Below are positions 746-10,717 of a stretch of 11,573 bases of DNA, one piece after another. The notes beneath the pieces were generated by a model. That model worked only from the letters and a program-made list of their open reading frames with translations. It was not told where the DNA came from and did no database searches. Origin of the DNA: a virus (taxonomy: Duplodnaviria; Heunggongvirae; Uroviricota; Caudoviricetes); the IMG/VR virus record IMGVR_UViG_3300012974_000418. One strand, written 5' to 3'. A program made the position numbers and the translations under genes. Each line of letters begins with the position of its first letter. The stretch's first letter is position 1.

Positions 746-1501
746 TTATTCAGAATCAATATCTTTTAAATCATCCTGAATCGCTTGTGCGTTCGGATTT
801 TCCTGCGGTTTGAGTTCGCCGCCATTAGCGATGAAATCATGACGCTGGAAGTACGCTTCGCGCACCATAATATAAGGATCGGACGACTGACGCAGCAGAC
901 CATCGGAATCCAGCAGCTGAGCGCGGGTTTCGATCCCTTCAAGCGTCCATTTACCCACAGACATCGGCCAGGTCAGCCAGGAAAGAACCGGGTAAAGACC
1001 ATCCGCCATATCACCACCGTCATCACGCAGCGTGAAGCTACCGTAGAACGGTAACTGAACGTAAGGCCCATAACCCACGCCATAATGACCAAGCGTACTA
1101 CCGAAGCGGTGAGGTTCAGTCCGTTGCAGTTTCGGGTTCGCCATCCCTGCAACATCAATAAAGCCGCCCATCCCCAAAATGGTGTTCAGGAAAAAGCGGG
1201 TAAAGTGGACCATCCCCTGATAAGGGTCGCCCTGCAAGAAGTAGTTAACCATCACCGCAGGTTCTTCAAGGTTGCCAGTAAAGTTGCTCAAACCATTACG
1301 CGCCGGTTGCGGAACATAATCACGCCAGGCGACAGCGACCGGTCGAACAATATACGGGTCTAATACGTTGAAGTTGAAGTTGTACATGGTGCGGTTGAAC
1401 CCTTCTAACGGGTCAGAACGCCCTTGCTGATCTGTACCGGAACTCGCACACCCCACCAGAAGCGTAGTTCCCAGAGCAAGCGCCGACAGGCGAAGCTTCA
1501 T
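746..1501 (-). CDS. mlaA: MlaA/VacJ outer-membrane lipoprotein (phospholipid asymmetry maintenance)
   Basis: 251-aa ORF with signal peptide and lipobox (LLVGC); sequence reads as MlaA/VacJ family; expected position next to yfdC and argW. Confidence 0.88.
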   Translation of the reverse strand: MKLRLSALALGTTLLVGCASSGTDQQGRSDPLEGFNRTMYNFNFNVLDPYIVRPVAVAWRDYVPQPARNGLSNFTGNLEEPAVMVNYFLQGDPYQGMVHFTRFFLNTILGMGGFIDVAGMANPKLQRTEPHRFGSTLGHYGVGYGPYVQLPFYGSFTLRDDGGDMADGLYPVLSWLTWPMSVGKWTLEGIETRAQLLDSDGLLRQSSDPYIMVREAYFQRHDFIANGGELKPQENPNAQAIQDDLKDIDSE

Positions 1502-1794
1502 AAATGTCTCCCTGTTTTTTTATGGCTTATGCAGTTTGCCATCCATGACGGAACGATACCGTATCCGCCTGTTTAGGTGTGGGCGATTGTAACAGCACGT
1601 CAACTGATGTCCAGACGCCCTGATTTGCTGATTTGATCATAGCCTGGTAATCGCCGCCCTGTAGGCTACTTGATTCTATAGAAACAGAAAAAGGCAAACG
1701 CAGCCTTTTCTACATTTTCAGAGTAACTCCCGCCAGTTGCGAGCAAAAAAGCCGCTACGCTTTAGCTATACGTGCTAATTCAAGAGAAGAGACC

Positions 1795-2802: not shown

Positions 2803-2877
2803 GTCCTCTTAGTTAAATGGATATAACGAGCCCCTCCTAAGGGCTAATTGCAGGTTCGATTCCTGCAGGGGACACCA
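2803..2877 (+). tRNA. argW: tRNA-Arg, anticodon CCU (argW-like), 75 nt with encoded CCA
   Basis: Acceptor stem GTCCTCT / AGGGGAC, anticodon loop CTCCTAA with CCT anticodon, T-arm GCAGG-TTCGATTC-CTGC, discriminator A then CCA at 2875..2877. Confidence 0.93.
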
Positions 2878-3038
2878 TCTATCAGTTCGCTCCCATCCGT
2901 ACCAGTCCGCAAAATCCCCTGAATATCAAGCTCTCCGTAGATTCACAGTTCGTCACGGTTCGCGTCAGATCGTTGACAGCCGCACTCCATGACGGGTAAA
3001 AAGTGGATAAAATAATTTTACCCACCGGATTTTTACCC
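2878..3038 (+). other. attL-proximal region between the tRNA and int, with short direct repeats (possible integrase arm-type sites) and a possible int promoter
   Basis: CAGTTCG at 2883..2889 and 2946..2952, related GGTTCG at 2957..2962; TTGACA at 2973..2978 with TAAAAA at 2997..3002 (18-nt spacer). Confidence 0.3.
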
Positions 3039-4196
3039 ATGCTCACCGTTAAGCAGATTGAAGCAGCAAAGCCGAAAGAAAAACCATACCGCCTTCTCGA
3101 TGGTAATGGCCTGTATCTTTATGTCCCTGTATCAGGGAAAAAGGTATGGCAGCTTCGCTACAAGATTGACGGTAAGGAGAAAATCCTGACCGTAGGAAAA
3201 TATCAGCTTATGACTTTGCAAGAGGCAAGGGATAAAGCATGGAATGCGAGGAAAGACATCTCGGTTGGCATCGATCCGGTAAAAGCGAAAAAGGCTTCGT
3301 CTAACAACAATTCCTTTAGTGCGATTTACAAGGAATGGTACGAGCACAAGAAGCAAGTCTGGTCAGTAGGCTATGCAACTGAACTTGCAAAAATGTTTGA
3401 TGACGACATTTTACCTATCATCGGCGGCCTTGAAATTCAGGATATTGAGCCGATGCAACTGCTGGAAGTAATCCGCAGATTTGAAGATCGCGGTGCAATG
3501 GAGCGAGCCAACAAAGCCCGCAGAAGATGCGGCGAGGTTTTCCGTTACGCTATTGTCACTGGTAGGGCTAAATATAACCCGGCACCTGACCTTGCTGACG
3601 CCATGAAGGGATACCGCAAGAAAAACTTCCCGTTTCTTCCTGCAGACCAGATCCCGGCATTCAACAAAGCACTGGCAACATTTTCAGGAAGCATCGTATC
3701 GCTCATTGCGACCAAAGTTTTACGCTACACAGCCCTAAGAACGAAAGAGCTTCGTTCCATGCAATGGAAGAACGTCGATTTTGAAAACAGGATTATCACC
3801 ATCGACGCCAGTGTGATGAAGGGACGCAAAATTCATGTTGTCCCGATGTCAGACCAGGTGGTTGAACTTCTCACTACACTAAGCTCAATCACTAAACCAG
3901 TATCAGAGTTTGTTTTTGCCGGGCGCAACGATAAGAAGAAGCCAATCTGCGAGAACGCGGTGCTACTTGTGATCAAACAAATCGGCTATGAAGGTCTGGA
4001 AAGCGGTCACGGATTCAGGCATGAATTCAGCACGATTATGAACGAGCACGAATGGCCTGCTGATGCTATTGAAGTGCAACTGGCACATGCCAACGGCGGA
4101 TCTGTGCGCGGGATTTACAACCACGCTCAGTATCTCGATAAGCGCAGAGAAATGATGCAGTGGTGGGCGGACTGGCTTGATGAAAAGGTGGAGTAA
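3039..4196 (+). CDS. intS: Phage tyrosine integrase (IntS/CPS-53-type, argW-specific family)
   Basis: The tracked ORF 3003..4196 starts at GTG; the ATG at 3039 (MLTVKQIEAAK...) gives 385 aa, the length I recall for IntS-type integrases. N-terminal arm-binding-like domain; C-terminal catalytic region with HxxR (HGFRHEF) and a tyrosine near the C-terminus (RGIYNHAQYL). Confidence 0.88.
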   Translation: MLTVKQIEAAKPKEKPYRLLDGNGLYLYVPVSGKKVWQLRYKIDGKEKILTVGKYQLMTLQEARDKAWNARKDISVGIDPVKAKKASSNNNSFSAIYKEWYEHKKQVWSVGYATELAKMFDDDILPIIGGLEIQDIEPMQLLEVIRRFEDRGAMERANKARRRCGEVFRYAIVTGRAKYNPAPDLADAMKGYRKKNFPFLPADQIPAFNKALATFSGSIVSLIATKVLRYTALRTKELRSMQWKNVDFENRIITIDASVMKGRKIHVVPMSDQVVELLTTLSSITKPVSEFVFAGRNDKKKPICENAVLLVIKQIGYEGLESGHGFRHEFSTIMNEHEWPADAIEVQLAHANGGSVRGIYNHAQYLDKRREMMQWWADWLDEKVE

Positions 4197-4250
4197 TCAA
4201 CCTTTTCATCAATTTTCACATCACCAAAGCCATTTAGAACGTGGATGATG

Positions 4251-6188
4251 TTAACCTATTGCAACTCTCGCATTACAAAATGCCAAAGCATCAGCCTCCG
4301 TATTGAACTCAACAATAAAAAAGTTTTGCAATCTAATAACGGTGTCCGTTTGTGCAGTAAGATACAATCGAATTGTTCCTGATGATTCTGCTTTTCCAAT
4401 ACCGAAAGTACTTGTCCATTTGCCGTCTTCTGTATAGATAACACCTGCTGAAACAGATTCTGAGAATCTAAAGTTTCCTGTCCCGGAAACAAGTTTAGCG
4501 TTAACCCCCCATACATACCACAGCCCACCAGTTATTGAGGCAAATTCTGAACTTAACTGTGATGACCCAGCATCGATTGATACTTCCGCACAACCATAAC
4601 CAATTGCTATTCCATCATCTACACAGTTTGCTGTTACTTGTTTCGTGCCGGGGAATGACCACGTAGTAGAACCAACAACCCCTGAATATAAATCTGCTGC
4701 ACGTACAGCGCCATGATACCCTATGGCCCCCTTGATAGCTTGCACCGTGGGCGCTCCACGCAAACTTAAGTTGCTACTCGCTAATAATCCAGATTGAGAT
4801 GCAACGCTTTTAATAATCGGGACTCCGCCAACTTCCCCCCCCGCATAAAGATTCTCAACAATAAATGAACTATTAGCGTCAACGTTCATGCTGTAAATAT
4901 TCGAACTAACAGTGTCAATTCGACAGTTACGCGCAATTAAGTTTGAGTTAATTAATTCAATATTAGTTAAGTATGACTCTTCAATGTATGCCTGTGGTGT
5001 GTTTATTAATTTAACCTGTCTCGGAACTTCTTCAGAACCATCGCGATCAATGGTAGATGCCGTAGCAATGAGTTCAAACCATACGTTTCGTATAACAATA
5101 GGGGTATAAGGAACAATGTTATTATAGTCAATCCTTATGCCACCACCAGTGCATTGCTCCATGATGCTATCTTGAATTTGCACAGATCCACCGCCATCTT
5201 GAGCATTCACTATATCAATACAGTATTTAGATATACCTTGGAAATAACAGTCGCGAAATGTATCGCAGCCAGAATGCATGCCGGGCACGCTTTCAGCACG
5301 ATACCCATACTCAGACGTTCTGAAGTTAACAGTTTGATATGTATTACCTATATTACCAGTTGGCTTTTTAATACAAACACCAAAATCAGCCATACCTACA
5401 TAACTGATATCCCATCTCCCAGAGAACATATCATTCGGGTCATATAGCACCCCCACGGAATCAGATGTTGCCGCCCCCTGTATGCTTATTTTTGAAATAC
5501 TTCGACGCTCCCAGTTTGGTACTGATTGTAATACTTTAATTGCATAATCTTCACTCCCTGGTTTTAATATAGATGAGTATCCAGAACCATCAATATCAGC
5601 ATTGCCAGTTGAAACGCTTTCGCTATATATGCCTGGAGAAACAAGAACCCGCCCCCTTGCGGTGGTATCATTAATCGCCTGTTGTAAAGTTGAATAATCA
5701 CCACTATGTTTAATGTCATTCAAATTATCAATTAGCTTTCTTTTACCAGAGCCAATATTTTTTGCACCATCTTCTGCCTGTAGAGCCGATTTACTCTGTG
5801 CATCATTAACTAAATTTAATCCTCCTGGAGAGGACAATTCTTGTCTTAACTGATCTGGATCGTACTTCAGCACATTAGGAAAATAGAACTGCTGTGCTCC
5901 ATACGCGTCATAAACAGCCATGGAATGGCCTTGCACAGTCACAAATTTAGCAATCTGTCCGTTATATACAGGATAACCAGCAGCGTTAATGATGATTGGT
6001 TGAGAAACAGGAACGTGAGAGCCGTCTTCGTTCTCCACATAAACCTGAATCTGGTTTTCAGGATTTACCGGGTCAGTGTCAATTTTACCGATATAAATTT
6101 TGCCATTGGCTACGGCTTTAAAAGAACGAGCCATAGTGAAGAGTTGCGAAGGCATCGATACAATCACATTAGCTGTAATGTCTGTCAT
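4251..6188 (-). CDS. Tailspike protein: P22 gp9-like N-terminal head-binding domain (about 5853..6188) fused to a divergent receptor-binding/depolymerase body
   Basis: The first ~110 aa ([34 protein letters not shown]...VLKYDPDQ) are near-identical to the P22 gp9 N-terminal domain as I recall it; the remaining ~530 aa do not resemble the P22 body. Confidence 0.88.
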
Positions 6189-6246: not shown

Positions 6247-6270
6247 AAAAAAACCCAGCCGAAGCTGGGT
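6247..6270 (-). terminator. Rho-independent terminator on the minus strand between ant and the tailspike gene
   Basis: Read on the minus strand: stem CCCAGC, loop TTCG, stem GCTGGG, then TTTTTTT (plus-strand A-run 6247..6253, stem arms 6254..6259 and 6264..6269). Confidence 0.65.
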
Positions 6271-6288
6271 CGTTGCGTTGGTTATCTG

Positions 6289-7212
6289 TCAGTAGTTATG
6301 TACTGAAGGAGGCAATTCTTTATTCTTAAGTCTCATCCATGCGGAAAGATTCGTTGGTCCGTCTGGCTCATTGATATCAACATCTCGTGTGTGATTGATT
6401 AAAACGTCTCTCGCCATTCCGATAACATACGAGAATTCATGACCGTAGTCGTAGCATCTGCCGGAATAGTTCGATTGAATTTGTTTTAATGCCGGATACA
6501 GTTCGCGGAATAATGCCTGTGAACGGTTAGCATAATCCCAGAGCCATACAAGGCTGTTTGCTTCTTTTGCAGAAAGCTCGTTGGTTTTCTTCTCTTGTTT
6601 GCCGATGAACTCACCTTCAAGCGGAACTCGAGCTGCAAGTGACAGTGCTTCGGTAAACTGCTCCTCACTGATTTCTTTGTACGAACATCCAAAATGGGAT
6701 TTCAGTGACGACCACATGGTGATCATCGCCTTAGCCTGTTTTTCTTTTGGCAGAGACTGACCGCGACTCATGACGAGTTGTTTAATGGCTTCCTGCTGCT
6801 CAGTGGTGATTTTACCCGGCAATGCCTTTTTAGCTTTGCGCGGGTTAACCACATGGCCTTTAGTCCAGTACTCGTAGAGCACATCGTCACACTCTTCCTG
6901 ATACTGGATTACATTGTCGCGGATTTCAGGGCGGACTTTGTTAGGGCTGATGGTTTGCAACCAGCCATTCAGTTTACGTAAAGCAAGGCAAATCATGGTC
7001 TGCACGCCGCCAACTGAAGGTATTGCGATTTCCACAATACCTTTAGCAAATCTTTGTTTTAACTTTGTAAACTGTGAAGCCCAATCCATACCCATTCCCT
7101 CAACGATAGGTTTCATTGGGGTATACGGTTCGCCGTTGTGATTGACAACATAAAGCTCTGCGCCGTGGAATGGCACGTTGATAGTAGATACTGCTGTTGC
7201 TATACTTTTCAT
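6289..7212 (-). CDS. Phage antirepressor (Ant-like, AntA-type N-terminal domain)
   Basis: 307-aa ORF placed between the arc-like gene and the tailspike, as ant is in P22 immI. The N-terminal region has the look of AntA-type antirepressor domains. RBS GAGGA 9 nt upstream of the ATG. Confidence 0.65.
7178..7206 (+). promoter_or_regulatory. Predicted sigma70 promoter firing antisense across the ant translation-initiation region (Psar-like)
   Basis: TTGATA (7178..7183), 17-nt spacer, TATACT (7201..7206) on the plus strand, inside the first codons of ant; predicted start about 7213. Confidence 0.45.
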
Positions 7213-7283
7213 GTCAGTTTTTCCTCAAAATTTACTGGCGATTTAAGCCCGAGCTACTCGCAATAGCTTGGGCTTTACTCATT
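7213..7283 (+). ncRNA. Candidate sar-like small antisense RNA complementary to the ant ribosome-binding site
   Basis: From the predicted start (~7213) across the ant RBS complement to a hairpin (arms 7245..7255 and 7265..7275, 10 Watson-Crick pairs plus one G-U, 9-nt loop) followed by a U-containing tail; about 68..71 nt. Confidence 0.4.
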
Positions 7284-7425
7284 CTGGACAAACAATTCCA
7301 TCCTTAGCTACTGACTCCTTTAGTCTCCTCAATACCTCATTACTGAACGACCGATCATCCTTTTTAGCGGACTGCTCCAAAGCCTTTTCCAGCCATTCTG
7401 GCATCCTTAATGTCTTAACTTTCAT
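7279..7425 (-). CDS. Arc-like ribbon-helix-helix repressor, 48 aa (below the ORF-track length cutoff)
   Basis: Hand-translated: MKVKTLRMPEWLEKALEQSAKKDDRSFSNEVLRRLKESVAKDGIVCPE. AAGGAG RBS 5 nt upstream of the ATG at 7423..7425; RHH pattern (MP..L...L....RS.N.EV..RL.ES); position between mnt and ant. Confidence 0.6.
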   Translation of the reverse strand: MKVKTLRMPEWLEKALEQSAKKDDRSFSNEVLRRLKESVAKDGIVCPE

Positions 7426-7529
7426 TTTTGCTCCTTTGTATGTGGTACGCATACATAGTATTTAGGTACGCATTGATAGTCAATAGATACCTACATATCC
7501 TGTGGTAAATAATTATTCAGGATGCGCCG
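7426..7529. promoter_or_regulatory. Divergent promoter/operator region between the arc-like and mnt-like genes (Pant-like and Pmnt-like)
   Basis: Minus strand: TTGACT (revcomp of 7478..7483), 17-nt spacer, TACTAT (revcomp of 7455..7460). Plus strand: TTGATA at 7473..7478 with TATCCT at 7496..7501. Imperfect palindrome GTATG-N7-CATAC (7438..7454) centred on GTAC; direct repeat GGTACGCAT at 7444..7452 and 7465..7473. Confidence 0.5.
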
Positions 7530-7781
7530 ATGTCTGATCGTAAGTACAAAAACCCTCAAGTGAATCTGAGGCTTCCTGTAGAGATAAAGGAACGTCTTAT
7601 TGAGCTGGCTGAGGCTAATTCTCGTTCATTAAATGCTGAGATGGTCGCGGCACTTGAAGCGTGGACCGAAAAAAATAAACACATTCAAGCACTAGACCTT
7701 GCAACTATAGCATCGCGGTTGATAGAGCTTGAGCATGAGGTTGAGAAGTTAAAATGTATGCATGGCAACGGTGAAAAATGA
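7530..7781 (+). CDS. Mnt-like ribbon-helix-helix repressor (maintenance-of-lysogeny repressor of the immI module)
   Basis: 83-aa ORF, the length I recall for P22 Mnt; N-terminal RHH pattern (VNLRLPVEIKERLIELAEANSRSLNAEMVAALEAW); divergent from the arc-like/ant genes. Confidence 0.7.
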   Translation: MSDRKYKNPQVNLRLPVEIKERLIELAEANSRSLNAEMVAALEAWTEKNKHIQALDLATIASRLIELEHEVEKLKCMHGNGEK

Positions 7782-8092
7782 AACGCATCGCTATTTTGTT
7801 AATATTGTTCTTCTCTACAATAGTTTGCGCCAAACAAAAATCAGATAATGGCGATCTTAAAGGCCTGCAAGAACTCATGATAACTTCGAAATTTGCTGGC
7901 ATGTGCGGCACAATCAAACAAATGGCAACATTTCAAGAATCAACAAAAATGCCTGGCGGAGATGAGTTCTTACATCGTTTTCTGACCACAGAGCAAGCAA
8001 GACTTGGAATGAATCCACAGGAGTTTCTTGAAGCATGCCAGAAGTCAATTTCAGCTTATACCAATTATTACAATCTAACTTCTGATAAATAA
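7778..8092 (+). CDS. Small exported protein of unknown function (N-terminal signal peptide); accessory gene in the mnt operon
   Basis: 104-aa ORF whose ATG overlaps the mnt stop (ATGA); hydrophobic N-terminus MKRIAILLILFFSTIVCA; AT-rich relative to flanking genes by eye. Confidence 0.6.
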   Translation: MKRIAILLILFFSTIVCAKQKSDNGDLKGLQELMITSKFAGMCGTIKQMATFQESTKMPGGDEFLHRFLTTEQARLGMNPQEFLEACQKSISAYTNYYNLTSDK

Positions 8093-8117: not shown

Positions 8118-8603
8118 ATGAAAAAATCACTATTAATTATCCCGCTTCTGCTGGCTGGATGCGCAAAAGTAAGTGACTATCAAGCAAGTTGCGAACAACG
8201 CTATCCAAAGCTTAGTGATATGGCTAATTGCCTTGATGCCAGCGTGAAGAACGACTCACGCATGGCATCAGCACCAACACCTAAGCTGTATGTCCTTGCT
8301 GCGAAGATGCTCGGGCAAGGTGTCGATGAAGGCAAGATAAGTGACGCACAGGCAAGACTTGAGCTTCAGAATCTTTATGTTCAATTACAAAGCCAAGAAC
8401 AAGCCCAACAAATAGCACAAAGCCAAGCATTCCAGCAGGCTTTATTGAATTATCAGGCTGTAAACACAATGCAAGCGATCGAGCAAAAAGCGAGACAGCC
8501 TGTTATAACTCAACCTTACCCAACGCGTGTTGACACCTATACAAACTGCAATTCAGGATTTGGAAATACCGTCACATGCAACAGTAGCAGCAACATTAGA
8601 TAA
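8118..8603 (+). CDS. Predicted outer-membrane lipoprotein of unknown function with a Gln-rich predicted helical region
   Basis: 161-aa ORF; lipobox LLAG-C with Cys at position 15 and Ala at +2 (no Asp inner-membrane retention signal); Q-rich segment (QLQSQEQAQQIAQSQAFQQALLNYQA); same strand as and downstream of mnt. Confidence 0.65.
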   Translation: MKKSLLIIPLLLAGCAKVSDYQASCEQRYPKLSDMANCLDASVKNDSRMASAPTPKLYVLAAKMLGQGVDEGKISDAQARLELQNLYVQLQSQEQAQQIAQSQAFQQALLNYQAVNTMQAIEQKARQPVITQPYPTRVDTYTNCNSGFGNTVTCNSSSNIR

Positions 8604-8605
8604 AG

Positions 8606-10717
8606 CTATTCATATTCATTCATACCGCTTAACGAGGCGACAATACCAACTCTCGACAAGCGATTGAATTCATCGCTACCAATAGCATCGCGTATTGCTT
8701 TTACGGCGGCTTTATTTGCCATAAATCTGCGTTCAGCCGCCGCTAATGCACCATCACTTGCCCCAACCTTAACTGCCTTTGTTGCCTCTTGGACAGCCTT
8801 TTCAATCGCGTAACGACCACTGCGGGATGCAGCTAACTTTTCTATCGTCCCTTTAGCTATAGATCCAGAAACAGCCCCCACAACACCGCCAACAATCCCG
8901 CCACCAGTGGTACCAACAATAGCCCCTGATGTTGAATTGCCTATTGCATTGAGAACTGTCATGACAGCTTTTGGCAGCCCTTGCTCAAGAGAGTTAATAG
9001 CCGGTATAGAGCGCCCCGTATGCTCTACATATCGCAGTGGTCTGGTTGCTGCTCTGGCAAGGTCGCTGTATGCCCTAGCAATCTTACCCATTTCTGGCGA
9101 GTGCCTGCTAATGGCAGTAATGTTCTGCGGCGTAAGGATCGACGCTATATGGAATACGCCAGCAGACTCTGATTTACCGCCACGCACCCCTTGCGATACC
9201 GCATCTTGTAATATTGATGCAATTGCTGGAGATCGCTCAGACTCTGGCAGTGAGCCAATAATCTGATGAAACTTTCCTGTCCCACTTTTTGATGAATTTT
9301 GCAAGGCTTTAATACCATCAGTGACTAACTGATCAGTTGCAAGGTTTCTAAACGCTGCTTCAGCCTGTTCTTGTGCTGTAAATCTTGCTTTTGACAGATC
9401 ATTAGCTTTTTGCCAGTCATCAAGAAAACCGCCATTTTGAGCCATTATGCGCATATCTTCCGTTGCTGCATCACGAAGCTCCGCCATGCGCCTTGCCGTA
9501 TTTGCCTCACCAGACCTTATATACTTCTGCTCAGCGTCAGCAAGTTTACTTCGCCATGCCTTCATGGCATCAAACGTGATTCCTTTTTTACCAGTTTTAG
9601 CATAAGCAGATGCAAATTGTTTCATCTCAGGAGTTAGCGGCATGCCAGCCAAAATATCACCCTGAATTGTAGCGTTCAGGTTTGACATTCTGGCCTTTGC
9701 GTCAGGCATCGTGGAGCGGACGCTATCCCATGCTGCCTTTTCTGAGTTCTTCATTTTATCAATACTTGCTAAAACCCTTTGTTTTATGGCTGCACTTTTT
9801 TCTGATGCAGATCCAGCCTCAGCACCAAGTTCATCAAGTGCTGAGTGGAATTTCGACTGTATTTCACTAAACGCCCTAGTATGTGCATCCTGAACAATTC
9901 CTGGTTCGGATGCCAATATCCCTTCGGCTTGTGCAATTCCACGACTTCCAGATCGCATTCCTGGTGTTAATGCGTTTATATCAATTCCAGCAGACTCAGC
10001 CGCTTTTGCTACATCTTCGGACACATTAGCGGCCTGACTGGCAATTGACTGACGCCCAGCACCTGACTTTGCCATCCTGGAAACATCATTAGCAGAATTC
10101 AGTGCTGCACCACCAAGAGCCTGTGAAACCCTTGGCGCAATAACGCGCCCGACACCTGAAAGAACGCCTTGAGCACCAATATTGATACCACCGTTAATGG
10201 CAGCATTTTGTGCAAAATCACCCTCCTGATTTGCAGCATCAGCAAGAGAACCTGCAATCATGTTTCCTGCGGAACCGATATCTCCAGCGAGCTTTGCTGG
10301 CGCTCCAGCAGCTTTTGCCGCTGTGCCAATTGGCAGGAGATACCCACCAATTGTTTCACCGGCTTGCGCATAAGGGTCTGTCGGTCGATCGACTGGACGA
10401 TAGACATCATCCAAAACCTTGGGGCCACCAAGCCCCTGGCTGATTGCATTAATCAGACTTGCGCCACCCTGCAATACGTCAAATGGTATGTTTACCAGAC
10501 CACGGCCAGCCTGTTCTGCAATTTGCCCTGCGCTTTGACCACCAGTGAGCCAGTCAGTGGCTTTTCCTACCAGAGATTGTTCTTCTGGCTGCGATTGGTT
10601 TTGAGTGGATTGATCACCAGAAGACAGCATCTGAGCAATGCGACGTGCTCCCTCAGTATCGCCGGCAGCATCAGCATTCCTTAACGCCGTCATCAACTGT
10701 TCGCGACTATAGGCCAT
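8606..10717 (-). CDS. Internal virion/DNA-ejection protein (P22 gp16-like by position), Ala/Gly-rich
   Basis: 703-aa ORF, the last late-strand gene before the immunity module, as gene 16 is in P22. Low-complexity A/G/S-rich composition with a glycine-zipper-like segment ([22 protein letters not shown]) near the C-terminus. Its ATG overlaps the upstream gene stop (TAATG). Confidence 0.55.

Follow-up and report, generated by a model that had tools for sequence, protein, structure and literature searches.

Does the short spacer between the arc-like and ant genes of this locus give rise to an antisense RNA that limits antirepressor synthesis, as the sar RNA does in phage P22? In P22, sar is a 69-nt antisense RNA of the arc-ant intergenic region, which pairs with the ant ribosome-binding site (RBS), prevents Ant synthesis, and modulates the lysis-lysogeny balance. 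It has been detected by small-RNA sequencing of P22 infections, and has been annotated or measured in the P22-like phages epsilon34 and UAB_Phi20. An earlier note on this DNA, made from the letters alone, had proposed an RNA of the same architecture. We find that the plus strand from 7178 to about 7283 very probably encodes a divergent sar allele of a P22-type immI region, belonging to a P22-like (Lederbergvirus-type) prophage at argW of Escherichia coli. Throughout, "the window" is the whole 11,573-nt stretch of DNA that was analysed.

A P22-type immI region at the left end of an E. coli prophage

Judged from its sequence, the window comes from an E. coli chromosome and contains the left end of a P22-like prophage (Table 1). 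The part from 2803 to 4250 resembles the left junction of a prophage integrated at argW, with integrase and then tailspike genes in the order seen in CUS-3. These two genes converge and lie 54 bp apart. Further along, the gene layout is the immI layout of P22: Ant carries both P22_AR_N and P22_AR_C, two genes encode Arc/Mnt-type ribbon-helix-helix repressors, their predicted promoters are divergent and overlapping, and the locus lies between the DNA-ejection and tailspike genes. The window Ant is 57% identical to P22 Ant, and the Shine-Dalgarno (SD) sequence of its gene, GAGGA (minus strand, 7226-7222), precedes the ATG at 7212 by 9 nt.

For the arc-like gene, whose stop codon is at 7279-7281, the ATG at 7425 is preferred because it follows a strong SD (AGGAG, 7435-7431), lies downstream of Pant, and agrees with the SEN22 and RefSeq annotations. 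RefSeq names this ORF "Arc family DNA-binding protein" in E. coli UMNF18. A start at ATG 7452 (57 aa) was rejected, as it begins upstream of the predicted Pant start. The Pant-like promoter would drive arc-ant and is placed relative to arc and mnt as Pant is in P22. Two inverted repeats between 7434 and 7497 are candidate operators, probably bound by the Arc-like and Mnt-like repressors; their sequences are unlike those of the P22 operators, while their positions are analogous. P22 also has an annotated ant terminator in the place equivalent to that of the terminator predicted here.

Two small plus-strand ORFs 3' of mnt (7778-8092 and 8118-8603) have signal-peptide- or lipobox-like N-termini (MKRIAILLILFF... 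and MKKSLLIIPLLLAGC...), and a Pfam search gave no match for either. They may be moron or superinfection-exclusion candidates, since the same place holds orf59a and sieA in P22.

Table 1. Features of the prophage end and its immI region, in window positions.
Feature	Position	Strand	Details	Source
tRNA-Arg (CCU)	2803-2877			Rfam search
Tyrosine integrase gene	3003-4196	+		
Tailspike gene	4251-6188	-	P22 head-binding domain	Pfam Head_binding
Predicted intrinsic terminator 3' of ant	6252-6271	-	GACCCAGC-TTCG-GCTGGGTT then TTTTT	Terminator scan
ant	6289-7212	-	307 aa; predicted sar target	Pfam P22_AR_N 2.8e-44, P22_AR_C 5.7e-30
Putative Psar	7178-7206	+	-35 TTGATA 7178-7183; 17-nt spacer; -10 TATACT 7201-7206	Promoter scan
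Predicted sar RNA	7213-7283	+	~67-72 nt; +1 G7213; 3' end probably 7279-7283	
Hairpin I	7213-7239	+	6-bp stem 7213-7218/7234-7239; 15-nt loop	Folding
Hairpin II	7245-7275	+	12-bp GC-rich stem 7245-7256/7264-7275; 7-nt loop CUCGCAA	Folding
arc-like gene	7279-7425	-	48 aa; ATG at 7425	Pfam Arc 1.6e-5
Inverted repeat	7434-7442/7450-7458		9-nt arms; overlaps divergent Pant/Pmnt candidates	
Pant-like promoter	7455-7483	-	TTGACT-17-TACTAT	Promoter scan
Inverted repeat	7459-7476/7480-7497		18-nt arms; overlaps divergent Pant/Pmnt candidates	
Candidate Pmnt	7473-7501 or 7484-7513			Promoter scan
mnt-like gene	7530-7781	+	83 aa; divergent from arc-ant	Pfam Arc 3.1e-10
Gene-16-like ejection gene	8606-10717	-		

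A promoter within the first codons of ant

The plus-strand promoter that the earlier note had placed inside the first ant codons, TTGATA-N17-TATACT, is indeed there, in codons 3-12. Its -10 element is extended by a TG at 7198-7199 (TGcTATACT, 7198-7206), and its score of 10/12 makes it the best promoter-like site between 6000 and 8500. Such a score is not unusual in itself: the window holds four 10/12 matches, with 3.25 expected, and two that also have the TG extension, with 0.20 expected. What speaks for Psar is its position and conservation rather than the consensus score. The only other 10/12 site with a TG extension (1585-1613, minus strand) lies in the host part, upstream of a lipoprotein ORF (746-1501, minus strand).

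The position of the promoter is that of Psar in P22. Here the -10 element ends at 7206, the predicted +1 is 7213, and the ant ATG occupies 7212-7210, as read from the sequence register alone. In the P22 RefSeq record (NC_002371), sar occupies 15021-15090 (minus strand) and Psar 15097-15125, with the ant ATG annotated at 15091 and the stop of arc at 15022. The register is identical, with the P22 -10 element ending (15097) 7 nt before the +1 (15090). The extended -10 block TGCTATACT, in ant codons 3-5, is shared with the annotated P22 Psar without a difference, whereas the P22 -35 element is GTGTTA (3/6 consensus) and that of the window TTGATA (5/6).

A promoter in coding sequence with a score no rarer than chance might simply be a by-product of Ant codons. 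There would then be no functional antisense RNA, and the hairpins described below would serve the sense arc-ant mRNA, for instance in processing, stability, or translational coupling. The codons that hold Psar, however, fall in an N-terminal extension of Ant, outside the Pfam P22_AR_N match (residues 12-121). As a negative control we have one example, an Ant homolog of a Stx phage, encoded in the lysis cassette outside immI, which begins directly at the conserved ...VPFHG... region: it has no N-terminal extension holding Psar, no Psar, and no sar-like hit. At least in this example, the N-terminal Ant extension appears from sequence to travel with the antisense unit. The by-product reading is taken up again below, with the strand-specific evidence.

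The predicted RNA and its fold

A transcript starting at G7213 would cover the ant SD and the whole 66-nt arc-ant spacer. The earlier note had it run antisense across both the RBS and the start codon of ant. The first part stands, and the second probably does not: with the predicted +1 directly adjoining the ant ATG, the transcript need not include the start codon. The predicted length agrees with the approximately 70 nt proposed. Folding of 7213-7283, which the note had suggested as a check, gives two hairpins with a minimum free energy (MFE) of -25.9 kcal/mol (z = -5.53), and 0 of 200 shuffled sequences fold as well.

The loop of hairpin I holds the anti-SD CCUC (7223-7226). Hairpin II spans +33 to +63, close to the 35 to 65 nt downstream at which a hairpin had been proposed. 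It is followed by UUUACUCAUU (7276-7283) and is presumed to be the intrinsic terminator of sar. The hairpin had also been thought to overlap the 3' end of the arc-like gene; it ends 3 nt short of the arc stop codon, and the tail alone overlaps. Hairpin II, which is followed by an interrupted U-tract, went unflagged in a simple terminator scan. We do not count this miss against the hairpin, because the same scan also misses the annotated Psar and the proven sar terminator of P22.

No ATG or GTG occurs in the predicted transcript. A small plus-strand protein (ORFs 7138-7266 and 7197-7307) was rejected on this ground and because conservation tracks pairing, not codons.

A homolog of P22 sar

The Rfam model of sar (RF00262) aligns all 68 of its positions at 7213-7279 on the plus strand, with 29.3 bits and E = 8e-4 in a 601-nt search. 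This lies under the gathering score of 43 bits, so a default Rfam search misses the site: at the gathering threshold, a search of the whole window reports the tRNA only. We also used a covariance model (R2) of nine sar alleles, including that of P22, from which the class of the window and SEN22 was left out. R2 finds 7213-7284 on the plus strand with 50.2 bits (E about 4e-8), covering positions 1-72 of 72. Its next plus-strand hit has 13.9 bits, and no other hit in the window exceeds 20 bits.

The element also has the location, promoter, and structure of a sar RNA. It is antisense to the arc-ant intercistronic region of immI (mnt, arc, ant); its promoter lies within the first ant codons with the +1 beside the ant ATG; and it comprises approximately 68-70 nt with two stem-loops, of which the 5' one has a loop complementary to the SD of ant and the 3' one is of the terminator type. 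The full-length Rfam alignment, the R2 score, the P22-identical register, and the P22-type flanking genes bear out the P22 sar architecture that had been proposed. From sequence comparison, we conclude that the element is a homolog of P22 sar, not merely an analog. The earlier remark that its sequence appears different holds in that the allele is divergent (about 67% identity to P22 sar), and does not hold in the sense of unrelated, as the element matches the Rfam sar model.

With P22 sar, the window element shares a +1 beside the ant ATG, a 3' end over the arc stop codon, a length of approximately 70 nt, and a two-hairpin architecture in which the 5' loop carries the anti-SD. The two agree at 50 positions in 75 alignment columns, and the longest continuous identity in the 5' third is only 8 nt. 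Hairpin II has 14 bp and a 4-nt loop in P22, versus 12 bp and a 7-nt loop here, and the P22-type allele reaches 94 Rfam bits, versus 29.3. Predicted pairing of the window sar is -129 kcal/mol with its own target, compared with -54 kcal/mol with the P22 target. The near-consensus -35 element and the shorter, larger-looped hairpin II are differences from P22 that could matter.

The nearest allele is the sar of SEN22 (NC_028696), which is identical to that of the window at 63 of 70 positions, has the same loops, and likewise falls under the Rfam cut-off (32.4 bits). Unlike the window, SEN22 has a P22-type ant 5' end and a GTGTTA -35 element. Its ant is split by a transposon according to the annotation (positions 781-1928 of its locus), and its sar, arc, and mnt are intact. 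CUS-3 (CP000711) shares the ant 5' end of the window, the TTGATA Psar, and the kind of arc-like gene, and is likewise an argW prophage in which int adjoins the tailspike gene. It differs in having another hairpin I, a P22-type hairpin II, and approximately 200 bp extra between arc and sar. The epsilon34 genome paper (2008) describes CUS-3 as apparently without arc. At 2877-3017 (minus strand) of the CUS-3 locus there is an unannotated 46-aa arc-like ORF, MKVKTLRMPEKLEKILEEKAKEECRSFSAEVIKRVLDSLKREGVMV, which resembles the arc-like protein of the window, and a sar-family RNA is present.

Conserved and covarying hairpins of the antisense strand

Scanning IMG/VR for the Psar -10/ATG core yielded 60 distinct sar-like 72-mers. 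The 15-base search pattern fixes this core, so its conservation among the relatives is by construction, and some non-sar matches are probably due to chance. Folded singly, all 60 relatives give the same two hairpins starting at +1. For hairpin II, 95 to 99% of cells in the family alignments are paired and five to six pairs are changed on both sides. The observed covariation is not attained in any of 500 shuffles, and slid controls are far lower. Hairpin I occurs in 29 distinct versions (e.g., GUUGG/CUGAC, GUCAA/UUGAU, GUCGU/ACGAU, GUCUU/GGGAC, and GUCAG/CUGGC), with three to five pair types at stem positions 3-5. Canonical pairing amounts to 99%, versus 84% with permuted 3' arms (0 of 2000 permutations reach 99%), figures for which the arms were taken from each sequence's own minimum-energy fold and which are biased towards pairing. 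Hairpin I was tabulated from individual folds because the MAFFT (A1) and model-fitted (A2) alignments lose its register; they were rejected for this hairpin, being out of register in classes with other loop lengths (60 to 65% paired). In nearly all alleles, the loop of hairpin I contains CCUC, CUCC, or UCCU and is thereby complementary to the ant SD.

These structures belong to the antisense strand rather than to the mRNA. Across the 60 relatives, the mean MFE is -29.4 kcal/mol for the sar strand versus -19.6 kcal/mol for the mRNA strand, the sar strand being the stronger in every one, and approximately 21% of sar-strand pairs are G.U and turn into C.A mismatches in the mRNA. In favour of the by-product reading, the mRNA strand, too, folds into a complement of hairpin II; yet the fold of the ant leader in the window is not significant on that strand (z = -1.6). 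The stability and covariation of the antisense strand therefore indicate that selection acts on the antisense transcript. Together with the experimentally established RNA of P22, to which the element is homologous, this makes the by-product reading highly improbable.

The low Rfam score of this divergent allele could also be that of a decayed sar remnant, homologous and nonfunctional, in a defective prophage. The window, however, has a better promoter than P22, all stem pairs are intact, and none of the ant, arc-like, and mnt-like ORFs is truncated. Moreover, the identical 75-nt allele is found in three independent viral contigs (L036, L070, and L087), and 21 E. coli genome records contain the surrounding 291-nt stretch (7170-7460) at ≥99% identity; at ≥80% coverage, this region is present in 35 of the 5426 complete genomes of E. 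coli. We give a decayed remnant next to no probability.

A third alternative accepts that the unit is transcribed and holds that it acts mainly by convergent transcription, not by RNA-RNA pairing at the RBS. Polymerases from Psar, or the sar terminator hairpin, would hinder Pant or late-operon polymerases and so tune read-through into ant and the tailspike gene. Psar does face Pant from approximately 250 bp away, with a -35 element near consensus, and in the genome paper on epsilon34 the ant moron is discussed as a modulator of late read-through into the tailspike gene. Against this, the anti-SD lies in the hairpin I loop of nearly all alleles and the antisense-strand structure covaries, which points to selection on the RNA itself, and P22 reviews and annotation describe RBS occlusion. 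The two mechanisms can coexist; that convergent transcription is the main one seems very unlikely to us.

A divergent sar allele that pairs with the ant leader thus remains our preferred reading of the locus, and we infer that the window sar is made, terminates at hairpin II, and represses ant translation. Sigma-70 RNA polymerase would start at G7213 from the extended -10 promoter in the first ant codons, copy the complement of the entire arc-ant spacer, and stop just within the arc stop codon, once past hairpin II. The resulting RNA of approximately 70 nt would have a 5' hairpin whose 15-nt loop exposes the anti-SD CCUC. This loop would contact the ant leader on arc-ant transcripts, whether from Pant or from late read-through, with a full duplex then forming over the 66-nt spacer. 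The complementarity of sar and ant leader is perfect because sar is cis-encoded. The duplex would occlude the ant RBS and keep antirepressor synthesis low. Activation of Psar by transcription from Pant is a further claim about this promoter, which we have kept out of the evidence.

Allele diversity and mosaicism

We find that sar alleles are more diverse than the Rfam cut-off allows. Four allele classes score between 69 and 94 bits: the P22 type (94), the CUS-3 type (86), the GTCGAT type (72), and the GTCAAT type (69). Besides the window (29.3 bits), five classes fall below 43 bits, namely L004 (38.8), L052 (38.6), SEN22 (32.4), L035 (29), and L007 (28.5), and an Rfam scan of two more loci (L059 and L065) gave no sar hit at E up to 1. 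The Rfam cut-off is narrow relative to the real diversity of the sar family.

The classes differ in what they are predicted to pair with and in how their parts are combined. Predicted duplex energy is about -130 kcal/mol with the own target and -29 to -54 kcal/mol with most foreign classes, SEN22 reaching -97 kcal/mol. We observe three classes of Psar -35 element and ant N-terminus: TTGATA, GTGTTA/C, and GTGAAA (L001, L002, L007, L047, L105, and others). Promoter, hairpin I, and hairpin II classes are variously combined, which implies a recombination joint at the invariant -10/ATG core. A farther-reaching proposal, which we hold to be rather doubtful, is that sar comprises at least 10 specificity classes without cross-pairing, the window and SEN22 alleles forming one of them, and that phages exchange promoter type, hairpin I, and hairpin II at the invariant TGCTATACTnnTCATGT joint. 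The window allele, with its near-consensus -35 element, could be expressed constitutively from the prophage and would then act in trans only on superinfecting phages of the same class. If this is true, the specificity classes add an RNA-level layer to immI heteroimmunity.

The TGCTATACTnnTCATGT core also precedes small non-Ant ORFs beginning M-K/N-S-I-A (IMG/VR contigs L005/L017/L054, L107, and L039/L084/L120), where unrelated hairpins come next in the antisense direction. At L005 there is a canonical terminator with UCCUCC in its stem; L107 has an anti-SD and then a CCCCGG hairpin. Such loci may represent sar-like units that are attached to other genes and are not homologous to sar, although some matches to the pattern are expected by chance.

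Discussion

Short, structured cis-antisense RNAs that block an RBS, with a recognition loop in the 5' hairpin, are a familiar design, seen in IS10 RNA-OUT, R1 CopA, and lambda OOP. Lambda OOP differs in working through RNase III at the 3' end of cII. The sequences and targets of these three RNAs are unrelated to those of the window sar. As a member of a family whose mechanism has been known since 1987, the element itself is little new; what is mildly new is the allele diversity and the annotation gap only.

This gap is visible in E. coli UMNF18, where the RefSeq annotation of an identical locus includes ant and two Arc-family genes and no noncoding RNA; our model R1 detects the same sar RNA there. 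At least seven other sar-like loci that we tested also fall short in Rfam, five of them below the cut-off and two without a reported hit. Given these misses by Rfam and RefSeq, antirepressor control is under-annotated in many P22-like prophages of E. coli and Salmonella.

The practical value of the finding thus lies in annotation, and biologically it extends a known mechanism only. The diversity of sar alleles and their mosaic reshuffling are usable for studying the specificity of antisense recognition and immI heteroimmunity.
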